From positions 64,001-105,825 of the forward strand of contig JBGARE010000037.1 in the NCBI GenBank assembly GCA_044230415.1: a stretch of 41,825 nt of DNA, given 5' to 3'. The notes under the pieces were generated by a model that was not told the DNA's origin, ran no database searches, and saw only the letters and a list, made by a program, of their open reading frames with translations. Position 1 is the stretch's first letter, and each line of letters begins with the position of its first letter. Positions 1 through 14,913 of this stretch are shown in pieces. Source of the DNA: Kofleriaceae bacterium. Lineage in GTDB: Bacteria; Myxococcota_A; Polyangia; Haliangiales; Haliangiaceae. A program made the position numbers and the translations under genes.

Positions 1-1426
1 GCAGCATCGACTTCAGCTCGGGCTGATCGACCGGATAGAACAGCGGGATGTGGACCTCGGCGCGGCCCTGGCGCTTGAGATCGACCGGCAGGTTATCCGG
101 GCGCGCGGTCAGCAGCATCCAGATGATCTTGCCGCGATAGGCGGTGTCGCCCATCTGCGAGGCGATGAGCGCGAACACGCGACCACCGACGCCGCTGTCA
201 CCACCCGAGTCGCGATCACCGAGCATCGCGTCTGCTTCGTCGATGATCACGACGACCGGACCCATCGAGCGCAGCACGTTGAGCACGCGCTCGAGGTTGC
301 CTTCCGTCTCGCCGACGTACTTGCTGCGGAAGTTCTTCAGCACGACGGCCGGGATGCCGATCGATCCGGCGACGCACGTCGCGAGGAAGCTCTTGCCCGT
401 TCCGACCGGACCGCAGAACAGATAGCCCATCGGCACGGTGTCGAGCTCGCCGCGCTTGATCAGCTCGGCATCGTCGAGCAACCGCTTCTTCGCGGCTTCG
501 TGACCGACGACGGTATCGAGGCCCCACTTCGGCTCGACGAACTCGAGCAGGCCCTGCGCCTGGCGCTCGATCAAGCGCTTCTTCAGATCCTTGAAGTACA
601 CGCGGTCGAGGCGGCGATTTCCCTCGAGCGTCGACTGCACGAGGACCTCGAGGTCCGTGAGGCCGATGCCGGCGGTCAGCTTGCCGAGCTCCGCGACGCT
701 GTAGTCCGAGAACGTCGCGAGGTCCTTGCCGCTCGCTTTGATCTGCGCGTCGAGATACGCGGTGCGCTCGTCGGCGGCGGGGAGCGGCACTTCGATCGAC
801 GCGACGTGCGGATTTCCAGCGAGGCGATCGTTGATGCTCGACAGCCGCGGATCGATCAGCACGAACGCCATGTTCAGGCGCTTCACGTACGGGCTCGACG
901 ACCAGTTGAGCAGCGTCACGAGGTGCGTCTGCTCGTTGAGATCGAGGTTGTCGCCGCTCGGCGCGACGTATCCGGCGTGGTCGATGATGATCGCGCAGCG
1001 GAGACGCTTCTCCGGATCGGCCATCACGTTCTTCTGCACGAACAGATCGATCGCGAGCAGTCCCTTCGTCGGATCGCGGGGCAGGGCGCGTAGATCGCCG
1101 AGCCACTTGTTCGCGGTCTCGACCATCTCTTGAAGCCGCTTGCTGTTCGAGCCGGCGCTGCAGCGAAGGCCGCCCGCGAGGTCGTACTTGATCACGAGGT
1201 CCCAGCGGCCGAACAGCTGCTCGGAGAGAAACTCGGTCAGGCCCGTCCACCGATCCGGTGCGGAGCGGACGACATCGAACGTGTTGCCATGCACGATGAA
1301 CATCGAGGTCGTGCCGGAGAAGTACAGCTCGGCGAGCTTGCCGGCCCACGCAGGAAAGTGCGGCGGCAGCGCGGTCGCCTTCGTCACGCCATCGGAACCC
1401 GCCAACGTCTTCTTGTCGTCGCTCAT
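1..1426 (-). CDS. Classic-clade AAA+ ATPase, partial (C-terminus lies beyond the window start). It has a ~290-aa N-terminal domain of unknown type, then Walker A GPVGTGKS, an SKYVGETEGNLERV motif, Walker B VVVIIDEAD and sensor-1-like LLTARPDNLP.
   Basis: I reverse-translated bases 1..1426 by hand. The reading frame is continuous from ATG (1426..1424), which overlaps the upstream gene's stop as ATGA. AAA motif order and spacing resemble the Vps4/FtsH/p97 clade, not the bEBP clade (no GAFTGA). The gene is absent from the ORF track because it runs off the window edge. Confidence 0.85.
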   Translation of the reverse strand, partial: MSDDKKTLAGSDGVTKATALPPHFPAWAGKLAELYFSGTTSMFIVHGNTFDVVRSAPDRWTGLTEFLSEQLFGRWDLVIKYDLAGGLRCSAGSNSKRLQEMVETANKWLGDLRALPRDPTKGLLAIDLFVQKNVMADPEKRLRCAIIIDHAGYVAPSGDNLDLNEQTHLVTLLNWSSSPYVKRLNMAFVLIDPRLSSINDRLAGNPHVASIEVPLPAADERTAYLDAQIKASGKDLATFSDYSVAELGKLTAGIGLTDLEVLVQSTLEGNRRLDRVYFKDLKKRLIERQAQGLLEFVEPKWGLDTVVGHEAAKKRLLDDAELIKRGELDTVPMGYLFCGPVGTGKSFLATCVAGSIGIPAVVLKNFRSKYVGETEGNLERVLNVLRSMGPVVVIIDEADAMLGDRDSGGDSGVGGRVFALIASQMGDTAYRGKIIWMLLTARPDNLPVDLKRQGRAEVHIPLFYPVDQPELKSML

Positions 1427-2373
1427 TTGCGCTGGCCTTCCACGGCGCGCGGTGCGGTCAGATCGGCGTCGAGGATCGACGGCGTGGTGTCCGCGTCGCT
1501 GACGCCCGTGATCTGTTGCAGCTCGCGAATCGTTGCTTCCGTCTGCGAGATGCCTTCGCTGATCGCGTCGATGCGATGCGACATCTCGTCGGGATCCGTG
1601 TGTCCGACGGCCATCTCGGTGACCGCCTGGATCTTGTTCTCGAGGCGATCGAGCTCGGTCGCGATGAACTCGGCGTTCTGCCGCGCCTTCTCGACGTTCT
1701 CCTTGCGCGCTTCGGCCGTGGAGATGCTGTCGTCGAGAGAGCGAATGATGCGGTCGTCTGCTTGGTTCGCTTCGCCGACAGAGTCCGCGCGCTTCTTGCG
1801 GCGCACCTTGAGGTCGGCGACGGTCTTGTCGATCGCGCCTTCATCGGCCGCTTGCAGAAAGCGCGAGATCGCCTGCTCGCTGAGGAGCAAGCGCAAGAAC
1901 ACCCAGAGCAGACGGTCGAGCGCCGGCGTGCGCAGCTCGGTCGAGGCACCGCTCGCATCGCGCGTGTCACCACGGACGGCGTTCGCGATCCGCGACATCT
2001 CCACGCAGCGCGCGCGCAGGCGCAAGAAGCGCGAGCGGCGATCCTCGGTTAGCGACTTGAGGACATCGAGGATCTTGTCGCGGGCGTTGCCTTCGCCGTC
2101 GACGGCGTTGCGGGTGCCGCTGATCCGTCGCGCGCCGGGGCCTTCGCCAGCCTCGGAGCGCGCCTTCGCGTCGATCGCGGCTTGGAACCGTGGCAGCGTC
2201 GTGAGCCCCGCGAGGTACACGACCTCACCGGCCGCGACGAGCGGCAGCGCGATGTCCGCGTGTCCGGACACCACCGCGGCGGCGGCGGCACCGCCGAACA
2301 CGAGGAGGTTCCAGCGGAACATGAACGCTTCCTTCAGATAGCGAAGCAGTCCGGCTTTCTTCTTCTCTGCCAC
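1423..2373 (-). CDS. Hypothetical membrane protein: two N-terminal TM helices (LLVFGGAAAAAVVSG / LPLVAAGEVVYLAGLTTL) followed by a ~230-aa predicted helical/coiled-coil domain.
   Basis: ORF track 316 aa. Its stop overlaps the AAA+ start (ATGA). Its start (apparently GTG) lies 1-2 nt from the ABC ATPase stop. It has a hydrophobic N-terminus and a charged heptad-like C-terminal region; no recognisable family. Confidence 0.65.
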   Translation of the reverse strand: MAEKKKAGLLRYLKEAFMFRWNLLVFGGAAAAAVVSGHADIALPLVAAGEVVYLAGLTTLPRFQAAIDAKARSEAGEGPGARRISGTRNAVDGEGNARDKILDVLKSLTEDRRSRFLRLRARCVEMSRIANAVRGDTRDASGASTELRTPALDRLLWVFLRLLLSEQAISRFLQAADEGAIDKTVADLKVRRKKRADSVGEANQADDRIIRSLDDSISTAEARKENVEKARQNAEFIATELDRLENKIQAVTEMAVGHTDPDEMSHRIDAISEGISQTEATIRELQQITGVSDADTTPSILDADLTAPRAVEGQRK

Positions 2374-2374
2374 G

Positions 2375-3645
<1,271 letters not shown>

Positions 3646-3649
<4 letters not shown>

Positions 3650-4854
3650 AGATCCTTCCGCCACCGGAACGCCTCGCGCTGGAGGCCGCGAAGGAGGAAG
3701 TCGAGCGTGAACGCGACGAACGTGATCACGAACAGCAGCAGATAGATCTGCTCGTAGAGGCCAAGGCGCTGGCTCGTGTTGAGCATCGTGCCGAGCCCGT
3801 GCGGCGTGTTCACGATCTCGACGAGCATGATGTAGCCGAGCGCCAGCCCGAGGAGGAAGCGCAAGCTCGTGATGATGTCCGGCAACGCGAGCGGGATGAG
3901 CACCTTGCGCACGATCTGCCATCGCGACGCGCCCAAAGTCTGCGCTGTCTCGACGTATCTCTCGGGCACGATCGAGACCGCCTTGACCGTGTCGCTGAAC
4001 ACGAACGGAACGACCGCGAGGAAAATGAACATCCACTTCTGCTTCTCGCCGTCACCGAACAACAGCAGCGTGAGCGGGATCAGCGCGCCCATCGGGACCG
4101 AGCGCAAGAAGATGACGAGCGGCTCGAGCGCACTGCCGACACCGCGATTCGACCCCGCCAACACACCGACGGAGATGCCGATCAGCGCGGCGAGGCCGAT
4201 GCCCTTGAACACGCGGATCAGCGTGTCGATCAGCGAGTCGGTGAAGTCGCGATCGAGCAACTTGCCGAGCGCCCCGAACACCTCGCCCGGGCTCGGCAAC
4301 TTCGACGGCGACACGATGCGCGCGGTCGGGTCTTTGCCGTAGGTCAGGACGAACCACAACAGGAGCACGAACGCGATCAGTCCCGCGCCGAGCGCCGCGC
4401 GCACGAGCGGCGGCGGATCCGCGCGCAGCGTCTTCCACCACGGAGGTGCGGTGGGGAGCTTGTTCGGATCGTCGTCCTCGTCGATCGCCTCGGCTTTCGG
4501 CTCGGGCTTCTTCGGCTCGGGCTTCTTCGCCTCGGCTTTCGGCTCGGGCTTCGCGTCGACCTTCGGCGCGGGCTTCGCGTCGACCTTCGCCTCGGGCTTC
4601 GCCTCGGGCTTGGCCTCGGGGGACTTCGCCTCGGCTTTCGGCGTCGCCGGCGGAAGCTCGTCGGGAACCGATGCGGGCGCGGGCTTCGGCGGCGGTTCGC
4701 CCGAGAGCTCGGCTTCGAGCGCGGCGAGCGCTGCTGCTTCGGCCGCAGGATCACGCGGCGGCTTCGCGGGCGCAGCTTCCGCCTTCGGCGCATCCGCCTT
4801 CGGGGGCGCGTCCGTGGGAGCCTTCGGCGGCGGTGGATCCTTCGGTTCGGTCAC
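3646..4854 (-). CDS. ABC transporter permease (BPD_transp_1 / NitT-TauT type) with a ~150-aa low-complexity Pro/Ala/Lys/Glu-rich N-terminal cytoplasmic extension (PEAKPEAK repeats).
   Basis: ORF track 402 aa. Six predicted TM helices in the C-terminal 250 aa. The end resembles the conserved permease loop (TSQRLGLYEQIYLLLFVITFVAFTLDFLLRGLQ). The N-terminus has tandem KPEA/KVDA repeats. Confidence 0.85.
4490..4640. repeat. Tandem short-period nucleotide repeats (ggcttcg / cgggcttcg units) encoding the PEAKPEAK / KVDAKP low-complexity linker of the permease.
   Basis: Directly visible as reiterated 'ctcgggcttcttcg / cgggcttcgcgtcgaccttcg' blocks on the plus strand. Confidence 0.7.
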
Positions 4855-4860
4855 GTCTCG

Positions 4861-6609
4861 CTACTGGGCCTCTGCCGGAACGACCTTGACCTCGACGCGA
4901 CGGTTCTTGGCGTGGTTATCGGGATCCTTCGGATCGGCGGGCTTCGCCCAGCCATAGCCCGTCGCCGTGAACTGGTTCGGCGCCATCTTGAACTTGTTCA
5001 CGAGCGCTTCCTTCACCGCGTTCGCTCGGCGAGTCGACAGCTCCTTGACCAAGCTCTCGTCGGCGTTGCCCTTCATCGAGCCGTCGGTGTGACCCTCGAT
5101 CACGATGCGCGCGGCACCGAACTGACCCGCGAGCTTCGCGATCTCTTCGATCGTGTACTCGACGTTTCCGTCGTAGAACACTTCGCCCGAGCCGGCCTTC
5201 GCCGGGACCTTCTTGTAGACCTCGTAGCTGTTCGGGAAGAAGTTGATCGTCACCGTCTTCGTGAGCACGGCGCTCTCGACGTTGACCTCGTTGCTGCCCG
5301 CGGGCGTGAACTTGAACTCGTACTCGTTCTTGCTCTCCGCGTATTTCGGCTCGCTGCCGAGCTTCTTGATCACGGAGAAGTCCATGATCTTGTCGAACTC
5401 GGTCTTGTCGTTGACCGCGCGGATCGCCTTGTAGAGGACGAACGCCGTGTTGTACGTGCGCTCGAAGTTCGTCGGGTTCGACGCGACCATGAAGAAGTCG
5501 CGGTTCTCCGCGTAGTTCGTCCAGTGCGCGTCGGCGAGCATGCCCGAGCCCGTGCCGGGCGGCAGGCCGTAGAAGTTGTCCATCATCTTCGCGACTTCTT
5601 GCTTCTTCTGATCGTCCTTCGACAGCTCGTCGGTCGCGTCGAGGATGCCGCGCACGAGACCCTCGATGATCTCCGGGTTGTCACGTGCGAAGTCCGCGCG
5701 CGCGAACCACACATCGGCGATCAGCTTGTTCGCGGTCGCCGTCGACACGAGCATCTTGTTGCCCATGCCCGTCTTCGTCAGGTTGTAGATGTCCGGCGCC
5801 CACGAGACCACGCCGGCGATGTCCTTGTTCTGGTTGAACGCGGCGGCCGCTTGGAACGCGTCCTGCGTGAACTTCATCTTCACTTCGCTCGGCTGCACGC
5901 CGCCGTTGAGCAGCACGTTCAAGAGGAAGTAGTGCGACGGCGAGTTCTGCGCGAGCACCACGGTCTTGCCGCGGAGATCCGAGACGTCCTTGATCGAGTC
6001 GCGAACGACGATGCCGTCGCCGCCGTTCGACCAGTCGATCTGCTGATACACGCGCGGCATCGTGCGCGGATCGCGCTTGAGGCGCTCGATGATGAGCGGC
6101 AGCATGTCGACCGTCGCCCAGCCGATGTGCACCGAGCCGTTCGCGAACGAGTCGCCCATCGCGACCGGGTTGTCGATCAGCTTCAGCTTGACCTGGAACT
6201 CGCCGCCTTTGGCGTCCTTCCAGACCTTCTTCGGTTCCGCGCCACCGTTCGCCCAGATGATCGGCGCCCAGCCTGCCCACACGTTCACCGCGAACTGCAC
6301 GACGCGCGGCTTGCCGAGCTTCTCGTAGTCCGAGGTTCCGGGGACGGTCGGCAGCGTCGTCGACGGCTCGAACTTGTACTCGGTGACCGTGGTCGCCGGT
6401 GCGTTGGGATCCGGGTTCTCGGCGGTCGTGGCCGAGCCGTTCTTCTTCACGAGGTTCGGATCGATGTAGTCGCCGCTGCCGCTACCGGACTTTCCGTCGC
6501 CGGACTTCTTCGCGTTGCAGCGATAGAACGCGATGCCGCAGAGTCCGATGACGACTGCGATCACCGCGATGAAGAATGCAGGCTTTGGTTTTCCAGCTCC
6601 GTCCGCCAT
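4861..6609 (-). CDS. Membrane-anchored periplasmic substrate-binding protein (NMT1/SsuA/TauA-like, NitT/TauT family) fused to a C-terminal OmpA-like peptidoglycan-binding domain.
   Basis: ORF track 582 aa. N-terminal signal-anchor AFFIAVIAVVIGLCGIAF. The central ~330 aa are SBP-like (VVLAQNSPSHYFLLNVLL..., GVVSWAPDIY). The C-terminus reads RIVIEGHTDGS...TRRANAVKEALV...ATGYGWAKP...NRRVEVKVV, a canonical OmpA_C motif set. GC content is somewhat lower than in neighbouring genes. Confidence 0.85.
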   Translation of the reverse strand: MADGAGKPKPAFFIAVIAVVIGLCGIAFYRCNAKKSGDGKSGSGSGDYIDPNLVKKNGSATTAENPDPNAPATTVTEYKFEPSTTLPTVPGTSDYEKLGKPRVVQFAVNVWAGWAPIIWANGGAEPKKVWKDAKGGEFQVKLKLIDNPVAMGDSFANGSVHIGWATVDMLPLIIERLKRDPRTMPRVYQQIDWSNGGDGIVVRDSIKDVSDLRGKTVVLAQNSPSHYFLLNVLLNGGVQPSEVKMKFTQDAFQAAAAFNQNKDIAGVVSWAPDIYNLTKTGMGNKMLVSTATANKLIADVWFARADFARDNPEIIEGLVRGILDATDELSKDDQKKQEVAKMMDNFYGLPPGTGSGMLADAHWTNYAENRDFFMVASNPTNFERTYNTAFVLYKAIRAVNDKTEFDKIMDFSVIKKLGSEPKYAESKNEYEFKFTPAGSNEVNVESAVLTKTVTINFFPNSYEVYKKVPAKAGSGEVFYDGNVEYTIEEIAKLAGQFGAARIVIEGHTDGSMKGNADESLVKELSTRRANAVKEALVNKFKMAPNQFTATGYGWAKPADPKDPDNHAKNRRVEVKVVPAEAQ

Positions 6610-6612
6610 CGA

Positions 6613-7383
6613 TTACTCCGTCACCTTGGTGGGTTCTGCCTTCTGCGGAGCTTCCTCTGCAGGGCCGAGATCCTTCGCGGCCTGGACGACGGGGCTCGTC
6701 TCGGGCGCGCGCATGCCGAGCTCGACCTCGAGATCCTTGAGCGCGTCGTCGGCCATCGAAGCCTCCATCCGCTCCTCGGCTTTGATCTTGTCGATGCCTT
6801 CGTTCGACAGATCGCTCGCGACGCGGGCCTTGCCGCGGTTCGTGTCGATCTTGCGCTGGATGACATCCTCGAGCTGACCGAAGTCCGTCGTGACGTCCAT
6901 GTTGAAGCTCTGCGTGAGCTTCGCGACCTCGGCTTCCGCCTCGGACATCTTCAGCTCGGCGTCGTACTTCGAGATCTTGTCTTTGACCTCGACGAGCTTC
7001 TTGTTCGCGTACTGGATCTTCTTGAGGTTGTTCGTGTACGCGGCCTCGTGCATCGCGAGCTGCTGCTTGTTCTCTTCGAGCTGCGTCTTCGCCTTCGTCA
7101 GCTGCAGCGCGAACGAACCCGCGGTCTCGCGATCGCCGGACTTCAAGTACGCCTTGGCCTGCGCGGTCAGCTTGTTGACCTGGTTTTCGCCGTCCTTGAC
7201 CTGTCGAGACACACGCTCGACGAGGCCACGGTATTGCTCGAGGCCAACACGCCCCTCTTTCAGCTGTTCGACCGCTTGGTCGTACTCGTACTGCATCTGG
7301 GCGATCGGATCGGCCTCCCAGAAGAAGTTGGCGAGCTTGTTGAGCTGAGCCCTGATCGCACCAAAGAACTTTCCGAGAATCAT
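6613..7383 (-). CDS. pspA: PspA/IM30 (Vipp1) family protein, a bacterial ESCRT-III superfamily member.
   Basis: The start was chosen at MILGKFFGAIRAQLNKLANFFWEADPIAQMQYEYDQAVEQLKEGR (a typical PspA N-terminal amphipathic helix), 23 codons inside the track ORF. A GGAGG RBS sits ~8 nt upstream. It is long helical/coiled-coil throughout and ends 3 nt before the SBP gene start. Confidence 0.85.
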   Translation of the reverse strand: MILGKFFGAIRAQLNKLANFFWEADPIAQMQYEYDQAVEQLKEGRVGLEQYRGLVERVSRQVKDGENQVNKLTAQAKAYLKSGDRETAGSFALQLTKAKTQLEENKQQLAMHEAAYTNNLKKIQYANKKLVEVKDKISKYDAELKMSEAEAEVAKLTQSFNMDVTTDFGQLEDVIQRKIDTNRGKARVASDLSNEGIDKIKAEERMEASMADDALKDLEVELGMRAPETSPVVQAAKDLGPAEEAPQKAEPTKVTE

Positions 7384-7501
7384 CGCGAAGCCTCCGGCCC
7401 GCGCGCACGTGGGACGCGGGGGACCACAAGATAGGAGGGACCCAGACCCCACTCAAGCCACCTGGTCAAAAACTGCCCGGTGGCCGCGTACTTGATGAAA
7501 C

Positions 7502-7852
7502 TTAGCGAAACGGACCATCCGCGACGGGATCGGGGTTCACCCACGTGAAGCCCTGCAGATCGTTCCACGGCACGCTCTTCGGCTCGCGCACGTAGGTCTC
7601 GTGATAGCCGCACTCCGTACACACGTACGCTTCGAGCTGACCGACGAGCGGCAACGCCTTGCCGACGCCATCGACGCGGGTCGCCGTGCGCTGGATGCCG
7701 AGCGATCGCGACACCGCCTGGCGTGCCGCGTTGATGAACTGATGATCCTCGCGATCGTCGCGCGCCACGAGGACGTCGTTCGCGTCGACTTGGAACGCGA
7801 TGTGTCCGATGCGAAGGCTCTGGCACTTGGGACATTGCTTGGACCTCTTCAT
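7502..7852 (-). CDS. Small zinc-ribbon protein (CPKC...CTEC).
   Basis: ORF track 116 aa. It has two CxxC pairs ~70 aa apart and a divergent promoter region toward 7979. Confidence 0.55.
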   Translation of the reverse strand: MKRSKQCPKCQSLRIGHIAFQVDANDVLVARDDREDHQFINAARQAVSRSLGIQRTATRVDGVGKALPLVGQLEAYVCTECGYHETYVREPKSVPWNDLQGFTWVNPDPVADGPFR

Positions 7853-7978
7853 CGCGCGCGAGCGTAGCGCGCTACGACGTCACAGATGCATCACTCGTAA
7901 GCACGCGCCGACGGCGATCAACACCAACGTTTCACCCAAGGCGCCGCGCGTCTCTGTGTCGTGCGCTAGTCTACGAGC

Positions 7979-8749
7979 GTGCGTGAGGTCAGTCGCGGGC
8001 TCGGTGACGTCGGCAAGGCGCTCGATTTCCTGAAGGCGCGACCGCGGCTGTGGAAGTGGCTCGTGATGCCCGCGATCATCACGCTGCTCGTCCTCGCCGG
8101 TATCGTGCTCGGTGTCGTCGCGCTCGTCGATCCGCTCGTCGTGTGGGTCGCGGCGCACGTGCCGAGCTGGCTCGAGACGATCGTCAGCTGGATCCTGCGC
8201 ATCGTCGTGATCCTCGGCGTCGGCATGGCCGCGATGGTCGTGTTCGTCGGCGTCGCCGGCATGATCGCGGGCCCGTTCAACGAGATGCTGTCCGAAGCGG
8301 TCGAGGAGGAGATCACGGGGAAGCCCGGACCTCCATTCGCGCTCGGCGCGTTCGTTCGCGATGCGCTCGTCGGGATCGGGCACGCGCTGCGCCGGTTGGC
8401 GCTGAGCCTCGTGTGGCTCGTGCTGTTGTTCGTGCTCGGCTTCGTCCCGGTCGTGGGCACGATCGCCGCGTTCGTCCTCGGGCTGTACCTCGCGGCGGCG
8501 GGCTGCGCGTACGACTGCTACGACGCGGTGATGGCGCGGCGCGGGATGTCCTACGCGCAGAAGCAGGCGTTCCTCGCCGCGCATCGGCAGCGATCGATGG
8601 GACTCGGCGGTGCGGTCGCGGGGATGCTGCTCGTGCCGTTCGTGAACCTCGTCGCGCTCGGACTCGGCGCCACGGCGGCGACGCTCGCGCTCGTCCCGTC
8701 AGCGAATGGGCAGCATGACGACGCCGCCGGTCGACGCGGCGATCGGTAG
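7979..8749 (+). CDS. EI24/CysZ-like (DUF540) polytopic inner-membrane protein.
   Basis: ORF track 256 aa with 4-5 hydrophobic helices, and N-terminal LDFLKARPRLWKWLVMP and GPFNEMLSEAVEEEI motifs typical of the family. It was preferred over the antisense Arg/His-rich ORF 7880..8584. Confidence 0.6.
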   Translation: MREVSRGLGDVGKALDFLKARPRLWKWLVMPAIITLLVLAGIVLGVVALVDPLVVWVAAHVPSWLETIVSWILRIVVILGVGMAAMVVFVGVAGMIAGPFNEMLSEAVEEEITGKPGPPFALGAFVRDALVGIGHALRRLALSLVWLVLLFVLGFVPVVGTIAAFVLGLYLAAAGCAYDCYDAVMARRGMSYAQKQAFLAAHRQRSMGLGGAVAGMLLVPFVNLVALGLGATAATLALVPSANGQHDDAAGRRGDR

Positions 8750-9709
8750 CTCCGTCGTCGCGATCCACGTGTCGTTCGCGAGATCGAAGCGATAGCGACC
8801 GATGACGGGTGTCGACCGGTGCCCGGCGACGAACATCTCCTGCGAGCTCTCGGAGAACGTCAGCGCCGAGGGATTCGCGATCGTGTCGATCGGCGCGAGC
8901 TCGGACAGCGTGTTGTTCGCGTTGATCTGGAAGCGATACACCTTCGACGCATCGATGGCGGCGACGTAGAGCTGGCCCTGGCGCTGCGCCATGAAGTGAA
9001 GACCGGGCGCGCCGGTGGCCGTGGTCACGGGCAGCTCCGTTCCGGTCGCGACCTCGAACCGGCGGATCACGTTGCTCGCCGTCGACATGAACAGCGTGCT
9101 GCCGTTCGGCGAGATCGAGACGCCGCGACACGGACCATCGCCGAGCATGCCGTTCGGCGAGGCGGTGTTGCCGGCGAACGTGAACCGCGAGATGCCGGTC
9201 GACACGTTGCACGCGAACAGCTCGCCCGTCATCGGGTGGAGCACCATGTCGTGAACACCCGACGTGATGTTCGCGCCGGTGATGCGCCCGCTCGGCGTGA
9301 ATGCGCGCCCCGTCGGCGAGTACGCGAAGCGCGCGATCGAGCCGGCGACTCCATCAGCGGAGTTATTGCCGTGGCGCTCGCCGATGAAGATCTCCTGCGA
9401 CGACGCGCGATAGATCACCGCGACCGGATCGGCGACGAGCGTCCGCGAGATGCCCGTGATCGGTGTCGCGGCTCCGTTGTCGCTCCCGATCTCGAACGCG
9501 ACGAGCCCACCCCACGTCGCTGGATCGTTGTTCGCGGGACCCGGAGGGCTGACGGTGACGAGGAGAACGCCGCCGCTCACCGGCGCATCGAGCGGCGGGC
9601 CGTCGATGTCGGTGCCGTCGAACGGGGGCGCATCGGCGAGTGGCCGATTGCCGCCGTCGTCGCCGCAACCACCGACGGTGATCACGACGAGAGCGAGCAG
9701 CGCACGCAC
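8699..9709 (-). CDS. Secreted lipoprotein with a beta-propeller (lactonase/YbhE-like) fold.
   Basis: ORF track 336 aa. Lipobox LVVITVGGC. The repeated blade-like segments include GELFACNVSTG and GQLYVAAIDASKVYRF. It is the last gene of the HK-RR-OMP operon. Confidence 0.65.
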   Translation of the reverse strand: MRALLALVVITVGGCGDDGGNRPLADAPPFDGTDIDGPPLDAPVSGGVLLVTVSPPGPANNDPATWGGLVAFEIGSDNGAATPITGISRTLVADPVAVIYRASSQEIFIGERHGNNSADGVAGSIARFAYSPTGRAFTPSGRITGANITSGVHDMVLHPMTGELFACNVSTGISRFTFAGNTASPNGMLGDGPCRGVSISPNGSTLFMSTASNVIRRFEVATGTELPVTTATGAPGLHFMAQRQGQLYVAAIDASKVYRFQINANNTLSELAPIDTIANPSALTFSESSQEMFVAGHRSTPVIGRYRFDLANDTWIATTELPIAASTGGVVMLPIR

Positions 9710-9721
9710 GCGGTCAGCGTA

Positions 9722-11096
9722 TCAGAACAGGAACTGACCTTCGACGCCGACGACGAGGCCGAAGTTGTCCTGCGACAGGTAGCGATGGCCGACGAGATCG
9801 ATGCGCTGGCTGTGGAGCGGGTTGACCTCGTCGGTGCCCGGGTTGACCACGTCGTTGTCGCTCTCCTCGCAGCCGGCGTTGCTGCCGGTGCACGTGGGGC
9901 GATCGATGCCCGCGTCCGCGAACGTGATGACGTGGTCGGTCTTCCACGAGACATCGACGGTGGCAGCGAACCGCACGTGCTTGCCGAGAGCCGCGCGGAT
10001 CGCGAAGCGACCGGCGGTCTCGAGATAGTTCTCGACGTTCGAGATGCCGGGGTGGTTCAGCTGCTGGACGCCCGGGTCGGTCGGATCCTCGTCGAGGACG
10101 AGCTGCGGCGTGATCGCGGTGTTGCCGCTATCGCCGGCGAACGCGAACACTTCCCACATCTCGGTGTACTGGCGACCTTCGAAGTGCCCCGCGATGCGAG
10201 CCCCCGCGTCGAGGCTGATCCGGTTGCCCGTGAGCTTGTCGTCGACGGCGAACACTTCGACGCCGAACGCGACGCCGCCTTCCTGTGGAGGACGTGCGTT
10301 CGTGACGCCGAACCCGAGGTCCTCGTTGTAGAGCGAGGCGGTCTTCGCGGTGAGCGGCACCTGGTAGTACAGACCGAACCAGCCCTCGGTGTGCTCGAAC
10401 TGGCGATCGACGGTGGTCCACAGGCGGAGCTCGTGGACGCCGCGGCCGACCGACGTGTTTCGCGTCGGGTTGTTCGCGGAGAAGCTCATGATGCCGCCGA
10501 TGGCGAGCCGGAGCTCGGCGCCCATCTTCCACGTCGGCTTCGTGTCGTCGCGGCGCTGGTTCATCGGCGCGACGTTGAGGCCGAGGTTGACCTGGTCGAG
10601 GCCGGAGCGCGCGACGCCGCGGAACACCATCGAGCCGGGTGGGGCGGCGGTGGGGTCGCGCGCGTCGAAGCCGGCCATCGGCAAGAAGCCATCACGCAGC
10701 GTGCTCGACTGATCGCGGCCGACACCGCCGGCGAGCTCGAGCTCGCGTGACTGCGTGATGATGATCGGCAGGCTCGCCGACAGCCACGTGTCGCGGACCA
10801 CGCCGAGCTCGATGCGCGGCGTGAGCACGTGGCGGAACTGGTGGAACTTGAGGTCCTGCTTGCGCGGGATGCCACCGTCGGGGTCGACGTCGGTGCCGCC
10901 GATCTGCTCGCGCGTCACCGCGGAGGAGTCGAGCTGGTACTCGTAGTCGAGGTACGCCTGCGCGGGTTGGTCACCCGCGGACGTCACCGCCGATGCGGGA
11001 TTCGCATCGGCGATCGTGGTGGCTCCCCCGACCCACAGGACCGTGCAGAAGACGAACGACGTGCGGCGCAGCACCGAGCGCACGTTATCACGCAAC

Positions 11097-11104
<8 letters not shown>
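9722..11104 (-). CDS. Outer-membrane beta-barrel protein (signal peptide; C-terminal ...GVEGQFLF with a terminal Phe).
   Basis: ORF track 460 aa. It has alternating amphipathic beta-strand pattern and a C-terminal aromatic OMP signature. Its start overlaps the upstream response-regulator stop by 8 nt. Confidence 0.65.
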
Positions 11105-12575
<1,471 letters not shown>

Positions 12576-12582
12576 GGGCTGG

Positions 12583-14913
<2,331 letters not shown>

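Follow-up and report, generated by a model that had tools for sequence, protein, structure and literature searches.

A substrate-binding protein joined to an OmpA-like domain, encoded beside PspA and an ABC importer in Kofleriaceae and beside PspA-like proteins in huge phages

Why should the binding protein of an ATP-binding cassette (ABC) importer carry a domain of the type that binds the cell wall, and why should its gene stand directly behind pspA? The question is raised by a gene in a 41,825-nucleotide (nt) stretch of DNA from a Kofleriaceae bacterium (positions 64,001 to 105,825 of contig JBGARE010000037.1, GenBank assembly GCA_044230415.1), which we refer to as the window. We call its product SBP-OmpA, a substrate-binding protein (SBP) joined to an OmpA-like domain. 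The answer that we favour, with about even confidence, is that SBP-OmpA acts as an inner-membrane-anchored, wall-bound subunit of a TauABC-like importer within a PspA/AAA+ membrane-maintenance unit.

The gene adds a member to a family known from earlier comparative genomics. In 2024, Ravi et al. (mSystems 9:e00847-23) reported an operon with the order PspA, PBP+OmpA, permease, ABC ATPase, TM-Snf7 (TM, transmembrane) and AAA+, with OGG56892.1 of Candidatus Handelsmanbacteria as the example. Their description takes up one sentence and one table row, in which the OmpA domain is read as binding peptidoglycan and the binding domain as binding the transported solute, and they also list an Archangium operon with the order PspA, PBPB, TM-Snf7. 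Here, we add a quantified account of the synteny, a residue-level case against a sulfonate ligand and the finding of the module in megaphages.

The open reading frame (ORF) of SBP-OmpA begins with ATG, has a GGAG 6 nt 5' of the start codon and encodes 582 amino acids (aa), with a GC content at third codon positions of 0.91 that is similar to that of the neighbouring genes (coordinates of this and all other features are collected in Table 1). Pfam recognizes both halves of the product. The OmpA family matches residues 486-569 (E = 1.3e-13; 51.5 bits against a gathering score of 27.2), while NMT1 matches residues 201-332 (31.9 bits against 20.5) and NMT1_2 residues 108-343 (26.5 bits against 24.7). 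NCBIfam gives TauA, SsuA and TIGR03427-type matches to the middle of the protein and numerous OmpA/MotB/Pal/YiaD matches to its C-terminus, all of them far under the equivalog cut-offs. An AlphaFold2 model built on an alignment of 71 family members (pLDDT 91.1, pTM 0.85) consists of a helix at residues 10-35, disorder at 35-62, a two-lobed type II binding-protein fold and an OmpA-like domain. The closest PDB structure found by Foldseek is that of TauA from Escherichia coli (6ssy; E = 3.7e-17, TM-score 0.80 normalized to the target, 20% identity), and a profile of the family matches the peptidoglycan-binding domain of Acinetobacter baumannii OmpA (3td3) at 1.8e-31. A search of the viral folds in BFVD with SBP-OmpA returned single-domain matches only.

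An earlier note, made from the letters of the window alone, had described a NitT/TauT-type SBP body, a canonical OmpA_C domain and an inner-membrane signal anchor; the domain and profile matches given above agree with the first two descriptions, and the hydropathy, the predicted helix and the cysteine contexts given below agree with the third. The note had named two findings that would refute it, a C-terminus that does not match OmpA_C profiles and a cleaved signal peptide with a lipobox, and our checks bore out neither. One could still suppose that the fusion was produced from two separate genes by an assembly or frameshift error. We give this next to no chance and have ruled it out: full-length homologues with the same architecture occur in more than 200 loci and in hundreds of independent assemblies, an independent gene call on a near-identical contig (L151, 124 kb) yields the same 582-aa product, and the structure prediction gives a single confident two-domain model.

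The same note had called the architecture unusual. It is uncommon among binding proteins, yet it is neither rare nor unrecorded. A HMMER scan of 1.84 billion representatives returned about 220 clusters (at 50% identity) with E-values of 1e-30 or lower, many of them full length (510-600 aa), 28-40% identical and aligned over both domains, and a search of a metagenome collection with the conserved peptide DWSxGGD... gave more than 588 confirmed loci. Homologues from metagenome-assembled genomes of Kofleriaceae/Haliangiales (Myxococcota) match best, at 85-95% identity. The profile search is dominated by Kofleriaceae, and the breadth of the family beyond Myxococcota rests on Ravi et al. and on metagenome contigs. 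The fused architecture also carries names in public resources: NCBI uses 'phosphate ABC transporter substrate-binding/OmpA family protein', the Joint Genome Institute (JGI) uses a combined OmpA/SBP name, and PHROGs has an entry of function unknown (phrog_25518).

How might such a protein be held in place? Residues 11-29 (AFFIAVIAVVIGLCGIAFY) have a mean Kyte-Doolittle hydropathy of 2.65 over 19 residues and form the sole segment of this kind in SBP-OmpA. The two cysteines in or after this segment have the contexts IGLC and FYRC; both lack Ala, Gly or Ser at the -1 position, and neither fits the lipobox pattern [LVI][ASTVI][GAS]C. The N-terminal helix is probably an uncleaved signal anchor, presumably with its N-terminus in the cytoplasm, although signal peptidase I may cleave after C-N-A (residue 33). 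In 98 of 105 family members, the first 45 aa include 15 or more consecutive uncharged residues. About 30 of the 105, bacterial and viral alike, carry a basic motif of the K-P-x-(G/A)-K type (KPxxK/KP[AG]G) directly before the TM helix, the counterpart of which in the window protein is KPKP at residues 7-10; this recurrence suggests a conserved contact on the cytoplasmic face.

A TM helix at the N-terminus and an OmpA-like domain at the C-terminus are also the plan of MotB, and weak matches to MotB and ZorB were obtained, which brings up the idea that SBP-OmpA is a peptidoglycan-anchored stator subunit of an ion-driven machine. We consider this very improbable. The MotB and ZorB matches are restricted to the OmpA domain, a binding-protein domain of 330 residues separates that domain from the helix, and the operon contains no MotA/ExbB/ZorA-like gene. 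Moreover, the TM helix of MotB needs a proton-binding Asp, and the helix of SBP-OmpA has neither Asp nor Glu.

At the other end of the protein, two residues of the OmpA-like domain stand out in the alignment of 71 sequences: D509, in the motif GHTD, is conserved in at least 90% of them and R528, in LSxxRA, is invariant. Both align with the corresponding motifs of A. baumannii OmpA, in which, according to the literature on 3td3, the Asp/Arg pair reportedly binds the diaminopimelate of the peptidoglycan stem peptide. We infer from these residues that the domain of SBP-OmpA would bind peptidoglycan non-covalently through the same pair, which is also kept in the viral homologues described below, except in gp249 and gp250 of phage G. 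SBP-OmpA shares the GHTD...LSxxRA...NRRVE motifs and the Asp/Arg pair with the known OmpA_C anchors (A. baumannii OmpA, Pal, YiaD, MotB and TssL). In those proteins, however, the domain is joined to a beta-barrel, a lipid anchor, a stator or a secretion-system subunit, and not to the binding protein of a transporter.

The earlier note had also asked whether the ligand pocket survives in the fusion. Judged by its conserved residues, it is intact and under strong selection, with the sulfonate-binding positions replaced. The near-invariant columns of the 71-sequence alignment fall in NTWxGxAP, TxD, DWSxGGDxIVVR, SPSH, WxPD, IADV and DNxxFF, and the conserved pocket residues are W111, D168, D192, W193, D198, P224, S225, W270, D299, N369, F372 and F373. 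The pocket was mapped by reading a phmmer alignment to TauA against the taurine contacts described by Qu et al. (PMC6906117), with an offset of +21 in the TauA chain numbering that was set by eight matching residues. In TauA, Glu106 and Asp205 bind the ethylamine group of taurine, Trp176 contacts the ligand, and the backbone NH groups of Gly79 and Thr132 bind the sulfonate (Qu et al., PMC6906117). The first three are retained in SBP-OmpA as D198, D299 and W270, respectively. The two sulfonate donor positions are lost, Gly79 being replaced by D168 and Thr132 by P224, both of which are nearly invariant in the family. Relative to TauA, further acidic and aromatic residues have been gained (D192, W193, W111, F372 and F373).

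Read in this way, the amine side of a TauA-type site appears to be kept and the anion side dismantled, and the ligand is probably neither taurine nor a sulfonate. With the amine-binding residues kept and Asp and Pro now at the anion-binding positions, the most likely ligands are small compounds that bear an amine, are cationic or are polar; di- and polyamines, amino alcohols and amino sugars are examples. The pocket positions remain near-invariant between the Kofleriaceae protein and viral homologues of 26-30% identity, and the class of ligand is therefore likely to be conserved as well. A straightforward orthologue of TauA was considered and rejected on the replaced sulfonate positions and on its scores, which are 60.2 bits against a cut-off of 490 for NF008553 and 54.3 against 304 for TIGR01729.

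The same evidence bears on a simpler account, namely that the locus encodes an ordinary nutrient uptake system of the taurine, alkanesulfonate, nitrate or urea type which lies beside pspA by chance, with the OmpA domain doing nothing more than retaining the SBP in the periplasm. The best family matches do point that way, the binding protein matching TauA/SsuA/TIGR03427, the permease TauC and the ATPase TauB, and TauA is the closest solved fold. Against this, the scores lie far under the equivalog cut-offs (for TIGR03427, 65 against 334, in addition to those just given for TauA), and the positions that would bind a sulfonate have been replaced. The genomic linkage described below, which is kept down to about 57% identity and recurs with PspA-like genes in phages, is not that of a chance neighbour. 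We therefore regard a plain nutrient importer as quite unlikely.

SBP-OmpA and its five partners on the same strand form a translationally coupled operon. The spacing at successive junctions is 3 nt between the pspA stop and the SBP-OmpA start, then 6 nt, an ATGA overlap of the permease stop with the ATG of the ABC ATPase, direct adjacency and a second ATGA overlap, of the 316-aa gene stop with the ATG of the AAA+ gene. The independent gene calls on L151 (256, 582, 402, 424, 316 and 595 aa) give the same products as the window. The product of pspA matches PF04012 (PspA_IM30) with 42.9 bits against a gathering score of 33.9, and the profile of its family matches the Vipp1/PspA structures at 5.7e-6. 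The permease has six hydrophobic segments, NCBIfam matches of the TauC/SaoP-like kind and a cytoplasmic N-terminal tail of about 140 aa rich in Pro, Ala, Lys and Glu; the ABC ATPase likewise starts with a Pro-rich tail. The C-terminal AAA domain of the AAA+ protein scores 84.8 bits and contains the Walker A sequence GPVGTGKS and an IIDEAD motif, and its N-terminal 300 or so aa have no Pfam family match and are compatible with a degenerate AAA domain.

Compared with the operon of Ravi et al., the gene order is the same and so is the domain content at each position that could be tested. The binding domain is labelled 'PBPB' there and is of the NMT1/TauA type here. Their AAA+ gene is of a double-AAA kind, an inactive N-terminal domain being followed by an active C-terminal one, of which the window protein clearly has the second. 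The 316-aa gene sits where the 'SIG+TM+Snf7' gene stands in their operon, and the homology of its product to Snf7/ESCRT-III was not reproduced in our searches.

Two further features of the transporter subunits were observed. In the 424-aa ATPase, the match to the ABC domain is split by an insertion of about 50-75 residues (at roughly 220-295) that comes after the Q-loop region and before the signature motif; this stretch is poorly conserved at more distant loci. The helical peptide RDPAAEAAALAALE(A/S)E, with Pro-rich low-complexity flanks, is present in both transporter subunits, once in the cytoplasmic N-terminal tail of the permease and once in that of the ABC ATPase (window positions 4752 and 3562, minus strand). 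The peptide could be a short docking motif and recurs in L001-L003, L005, L015, L016 and L023, with relatives carrying it in one tail, the other or neither; being patchy among relatives, it was set aside as a part of our model.

Conservation of the gene order was counted at loci with enough flanking sequence, drawn from 30 loci of GTDB genomes (62-91% identity) and 80 metagenome loci (56-85%). The pspA gene lies directly upstream of SBP-OmpA at all 25 of the GTDB loci that could be scored and at 47 of 52 metagenome loci. The permease and ATPase accompany it at 22/22 and 36/37 loci, respectively, the 316-aa gene is kept at 17/17 and 24/25, and the AAA+ gene at 17/17 and 23/25; the exceptions to the conserved order are rearrangements. 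The linkage of PspA, the TM coiled-coil gene and AAA+ to SBP-OmpA persists from 95% down to about 57% identity, and at 41% identity one locus (L033) still shows PspA, SBP-OmpA, permease and ABC ATPase in that order. PspA is the most constant partner, because some relatives pair it with SBP-OmpA in the absence of adjacent ABC genes. The earlier note had proposed a role alongside PspA and a check on whether the two genes co-occur elsewhere. The co-occurrence is confirmed by these counts; the unit itself turns out to be larger than PspA and the transporter, being an operon of six genes, among them those for an AAA+ ATPase of probably two domains and for a TM coiled-coil protein.

Relatives of SBP-OmpA are also found in viruses. 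A distant member (P0274) lies on a contig of 184 kb, where its surroundings encode DNA polymerase B, dUTPase and topoisomerase II, and a scan of IMG/VR gave 30 loci (L117-L146) on contigs of 12.5-519 kb, of which 25 exceed 80 kb, with a GC content of 28-52%. These homologues are 26-41% identical and are covered over both domains; three further loci (L031, L032 and L035) were grouped with the huge-phage carriers. Among the 29 viral loci with enough sequence, a TauC-like permease follows downstream at 22 and a TauB-like ATPase at 24. Just upstream of SBP-OmpA, 24 viral-context loci (22 from IMG/VR together with L031 and L035) encode a protein of about 340 aa with a TM segment and a coiled coil, and the family of these proteins aligns in hhalign with the PspA family of the operon at 97% probability (E = 7.8e-11, 212 columns).

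Deposited phage genomes searched with tblastn gave full-length matches in the Prevotella phages Lak-A1, A2, B1-B9 and C1 (540-552 kb), in phages of 735 kb and 595 kb of the LR7565xx series and in Bacillus phage G. In Lak-A2, a TM-PspA-like ORF (1.4e-68) stands just upstream of SBP-OmpA with one 109-aa ORF between them, and in the 735-kb phage such an ORF (3e-51) is immediately upstream. In phage G, the matches are gp249 and gp250, annotated 'OmpA/MotB domain'; they adjoin gp243 ('ABC-like transporter permease') and gp245 ('ABC transporter'), and gp247 matches the PspA profile of the operon at 5.9e-6. OmpA, PspA and a transporter of this kind go unmentioned in the jumbo-phage overview of Iyer et al. 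(2021), a 2026 paper describes a pspA-like gene beside terD in Jug phages, and the paper re-annotating phage G does not discuss the genes of the gp243-gp250 cluster. No report of a phage-borne cluster of PspA-like, SBP-OmpA and ABC genes was found within the searchable literature, and the cluster appears to be unreported.

Some of the viral loci depart from this pattern. The two proteins of phage G, whose host is Gram-positive, are tandem paralogues (L147 5806-9011) in which the wall-binding Asp is replaced by Asn (gp249) or Ala (gp250) and the pocket has in large part degenerated, most of all in gp250. In the subfamily L118-L120, TelA (Pfam 2.8e-116) and an XpaC-like (Halogen_Hydrol) gene stand upstream in place of the PspA-like gene, and these loci, together with L123, have an altered pocket (T166 to Q/P, S225 to F/Y, H226 to S, D273 to Y). 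At L121, L122, L124 and L126 (e.g. L124 6890-7741), the PspA-like gene is separated from SBP-OmpA by an extra gene, the product of which has about 255-283 aa, a signal peptide and no Pfam match and looks by its sequence like an outer-membrane beta-barrel.

With these results in hand, the reading that we favour can be set out in full. SBP-OmpA would serve a dedicated ABC importer, TauABC-like and of the NitT/TauT family, as its periplasmic subunit, and the importer would be built into a PspA/TM-coiled-coil/AAA+ membrane-maintenance operon. The N-terminal helix would hold the protein in the inner membrane, and the linker of about 65 residues would let the globular part stand off the membrane. 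The ligand-binding domain would pack against the OmpA-like domain and the latter would be bound to peptidoglycan, such that SBP-OmpA would fix a patch of inner membrane, with the transporter in it, to the cell wall. The cytoplasmic side of this membrane would be the place of action of PspA, the AAA+ ATPase and the TM coiled-coil protein, and there the transporter patch may serve as a site for PspA and may be physically coupled to it.

Several points weigh against this reading. Docking on the permease, at the surface of the membrane, is not obviously compatible with being bound to peptidoglycan. The distinction between a signal anchor and a cleaved signal peptide was decided by a rule of thumb, and TM anchoring appears to be the rule in the family without being obligatory, since a few members depart from it, P0123-P0125 with a lipobox and P0128 and P0139 with a short signal peptide that looks cleavable; the periplasmic location would be constant throughout. 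The acidic and aromatic pocket suits polyamines and sugars equally. No experimental work on any SBP-OmpA fusion was found in the literature. Finally, adjacent ABC genes are missing at a number of loci: L036 (34% identity; 4203-8599) has PspA, SBP-OmpA and AAA+ in that order, L110 (57% identity; 3445-6513) has PspA and SBP-OmpA only, followed by genes for a 2-oxoglutarate (2OG) oxygenase, a transaldolase and a PEBP-family protein, L034 is an orphan SBP-OmpA, and the viral L118-L120 and L123 likewise lack them. Because such relatives exist, the main task of the protein may not be to supply a transporter, and the earlier note's phrase that the protein tethers the transporter may be too narrow, given that L110 and L036 keep PspA and the fusion.

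These exceptions are most at home in a different account, in which SBP-OmpA is primarily a partner of PspA, a ligand-responsive staple or sensor between inner membrane and peptidoglycan that would mark or stabilize the sites at which PspA-type polymers act on the membrane, and the importer is an accessory that many lineages have added. PspA or a PspA-like gene is indeed the most persistent neighbour across the family, the Archangium operon of Ravi et al. and the TelA-linked subfamily join L110 and L036 as arrangements in which adjacent ABC genes are missing, and the basic motif before the TM helix could be the cytoplasmic contact point. On the other hand, linkage to a permease and ATPase is complete or nearly so at the bacterial loci and is found at most viral loci, the conservation of the pocket is that expected of a true transport binding protein, and where adjacent ABC genes are missing, such genes could sit elsewhere in the genome. 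Direct contact with PspA is also hard to picture with a cytoplasmic tail of only about 9 residues. We treat this account as a possibility worth keeping in view, though not one that we would expect to prevail over an importer subunit that is anchored in the membrane and bound to the wall.

How does this proposed importer subunit compare with systems already known? SBP-OmpA shares its fold and its amine-binding residues with TauA and has TauC-like and TauB-like partners, as in TauABC. TauA, however, has about 300 aa and is free in the periplasm, and SBP-OmpA has gained an OmpA domain as well as the TM anchor and the linker, with the sulfonate site dismantled. In Gram-positive lipoprotein SBPs, and in OpuA and GlnPQ, where the binding domain is fused to the permease, the binding domain stays at the membrane close to its transporter. 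The binding domain of SBP-OmpA would similarly stay near the membrane and the transporter and would not diffuse. Those other proteins are tethered to the membrane or the permease only; we know of none that is tied to peptidoglycan and of none in a PspA operon.

A second comparison is with the classical Psp systems, pspF-pspABCDE of E. coli and liaIH of Bacillus subtilis, in which, as here, a PspA/IM30 gene lies beside genes for membrane proteins that potentially recruit PspA. The operon of the window differs in lacking PspB/PspC or LiaI and in pairing PspA with an AAA+ ATPase and an ABC importer. Upstream of it, as upstream of the psp genes of E. coli with their PspF, stands a gene for a sigma-54 enhancer-binding regulator, but this is a two-component regulator of the NtrC type, and a scan for sigma-54 promoters (TGGCAC-N5-TTGCW) found no usefully placed site near pspA, with 11 matches against 10.2 expected.

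PspA and Vipp1 are bacterial relatives of ESCRT-III, and their recruitment to membrane sites is poorly understood outside the E. coli and Bacillus systems. The operon is a candidate PspA recruitment platform: an importer with a periplasmic subunit that would be pinned to the inner membrane and the cell wall, encoded beside a Vps4-like AAA+ ATPase. It offers residues on which this can be tested, namely D198, D299 and W270 in the pocket and D509 and R528 for wall binding. The megaphages with the same core (a PspA-like gene, a near-unchanged pocket and usually ABC genes) point to a general and portable function, and Bacillus phage G, being cultivable, is an experimental entry point. At the speculative end, and with little expectation that every part would hold, we suggest that PspA (or a TM-PspA-like protein) and SBP-OmpA, usually with the ABC importer, form a mobile envelope-maintenance module of soil Myxococcota and of the largest known phages (Lak, the 735-kb phage and phage G). 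The pocket would recognize one universal amine or amino-sugar compound associated with the envelope, and the module would couple this signal or solute to ESCRT-III-like stabilization of the membrane, the binding domain being a sensor or anchor and not a nutrient scavenger, and phages would use the module to keep the host membrane energized and intact through a long infection.

Table 1. Positions of the features discussed (window positions unless a locus is named; residue numbers refer to SBP-OmpA)
Feature	Position	Strand	Basis or remark
SBP-OmpA, whole gene, 582 aa	4861..6609	-	Pfam/NCBIfam domains, AlphaFold2, same gene call on L151
Residues 1-35: basic tail MADGAGKPKP and hydrophobic helix	6505..6609	-	Kyte-Doolittle, AlphaFold2
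Residues 36-100: Gly/Ser/Thr/Pro-rich linker	6310..6504	-	pLDDT <50 at 35-62; composition
Residues ~101-430: type II binding-protein domain (NMT1/SsuA/TauA fold)	5320..6309	-	Pfam, TauA 6ssy, conserved columns
Residues ~445-578: OmpA_C-like domain (GHTD D509; LSTRRA R528; NRRVE)	4876..5277	-	Pfam, 3td3
Six tightly packed genes, SBP-OmpA second	7383 down to 1	-	Order pspA, SBP-OmpA, permease, ABC ATPase, 316-aa gene, AAA+
pspA (PspA/IM30/Vipp1 family), 256 aa	6613..7383	-	Pfam PspA_IM30, Vipp1/PspA structures, L151
ABC permease (BPD_transp_1, TauC/SsuC-like), 402 aa	3646..4854	-	Pfam, NCBIfam
ABC ATPase (TauB-like), 424 aa	2375..3649	-	Pfam, NCBIfam, L151
316-aa protein, two N-terminal hydrophobic helices and helical/coiled-coil body	1423..2373	-	Hydropathy, synteny
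AAA+ ATPase, cut by window edge; 595 aa on L151	1..1426	-	Pfam, L151
116-aa gene, faint zinc-ribbon-like matches	7502-7852	-	Domain searches
EI24/CysZ-family gene	7979-8749	+	Pfam 5e-37
336-aa gene, weak beta-propeller matches	within 7502-9709		Between 460-aa gene and pspA
460-aa protein, no Pfam match	9722-11104	-	Pfam search; collinear in Kofleriaceae loci
Sigma-54-dependent (NtrC-type) response regulator	11097-12575	-	Pfam
Histidine kinase	12583-14913	-	Pfam
Phage locus L147, Bacillus phage G	169608-182969
Phage locus L148, Lak-A2
Phage locus L149, LR756501			735 kb
Phage locus L150, LR756511
TelA-linked subfamily, L118	4650-5714
TelA-linked subfamily, L120	6049-7719
TelA-linked subfamily, L119

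Upstream of the operon, the genes for the histidine kinase, the response regulator and the 460-aa protein are collinear in those Kofleriaceae loci that reach far enough upstream and are absent from more distant relatives; we regard all three as candidate regulators of the operon. A scan of positions 1-9800 found no sigma-70 promoter-like site. It likewise found no terminator-like site on the minus strand between the genes of the operon, the single minus-strand match lying inside the SBP-OmpA ORF and the count being that expected by chance. PADLOC recognized no known defence system and gave generic domain matches only (ZorB through the OmpA domain, mad3 through the ABC ATPase and IetA through AAA+).

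Several ORFs were discarded when the gene calls were revised. The 377-aa ORF at 216..1349 on the minus strand is an Arg-rich, off-frame artefact, the real gene being AAA+ in another frame, and the minus-strand ORFs at 7380-7835 and 7880-8584 were replaced by the genes at 7502-7852 (minus strand) and 7979-8749 (plus strand) listed in Table 1. The segment 7502-9709, between the 460-aa gene and pspA, varies among relatives, and in several of them the 460-aa gene abuts pspA.

The SBP-OmpA locus of the window is chromosomal and is not part of a mobile element. Positions 16725-39242 are ordinary chromosome, with genes for SelA, a ParA-like ATPase with a helix-turn-helix, a RluD-like pseudouridine synthase, YicC and RelA/SpoT, and they also encode a second sigma-54 response regulator with a Cache/HAMP histidine kinase.

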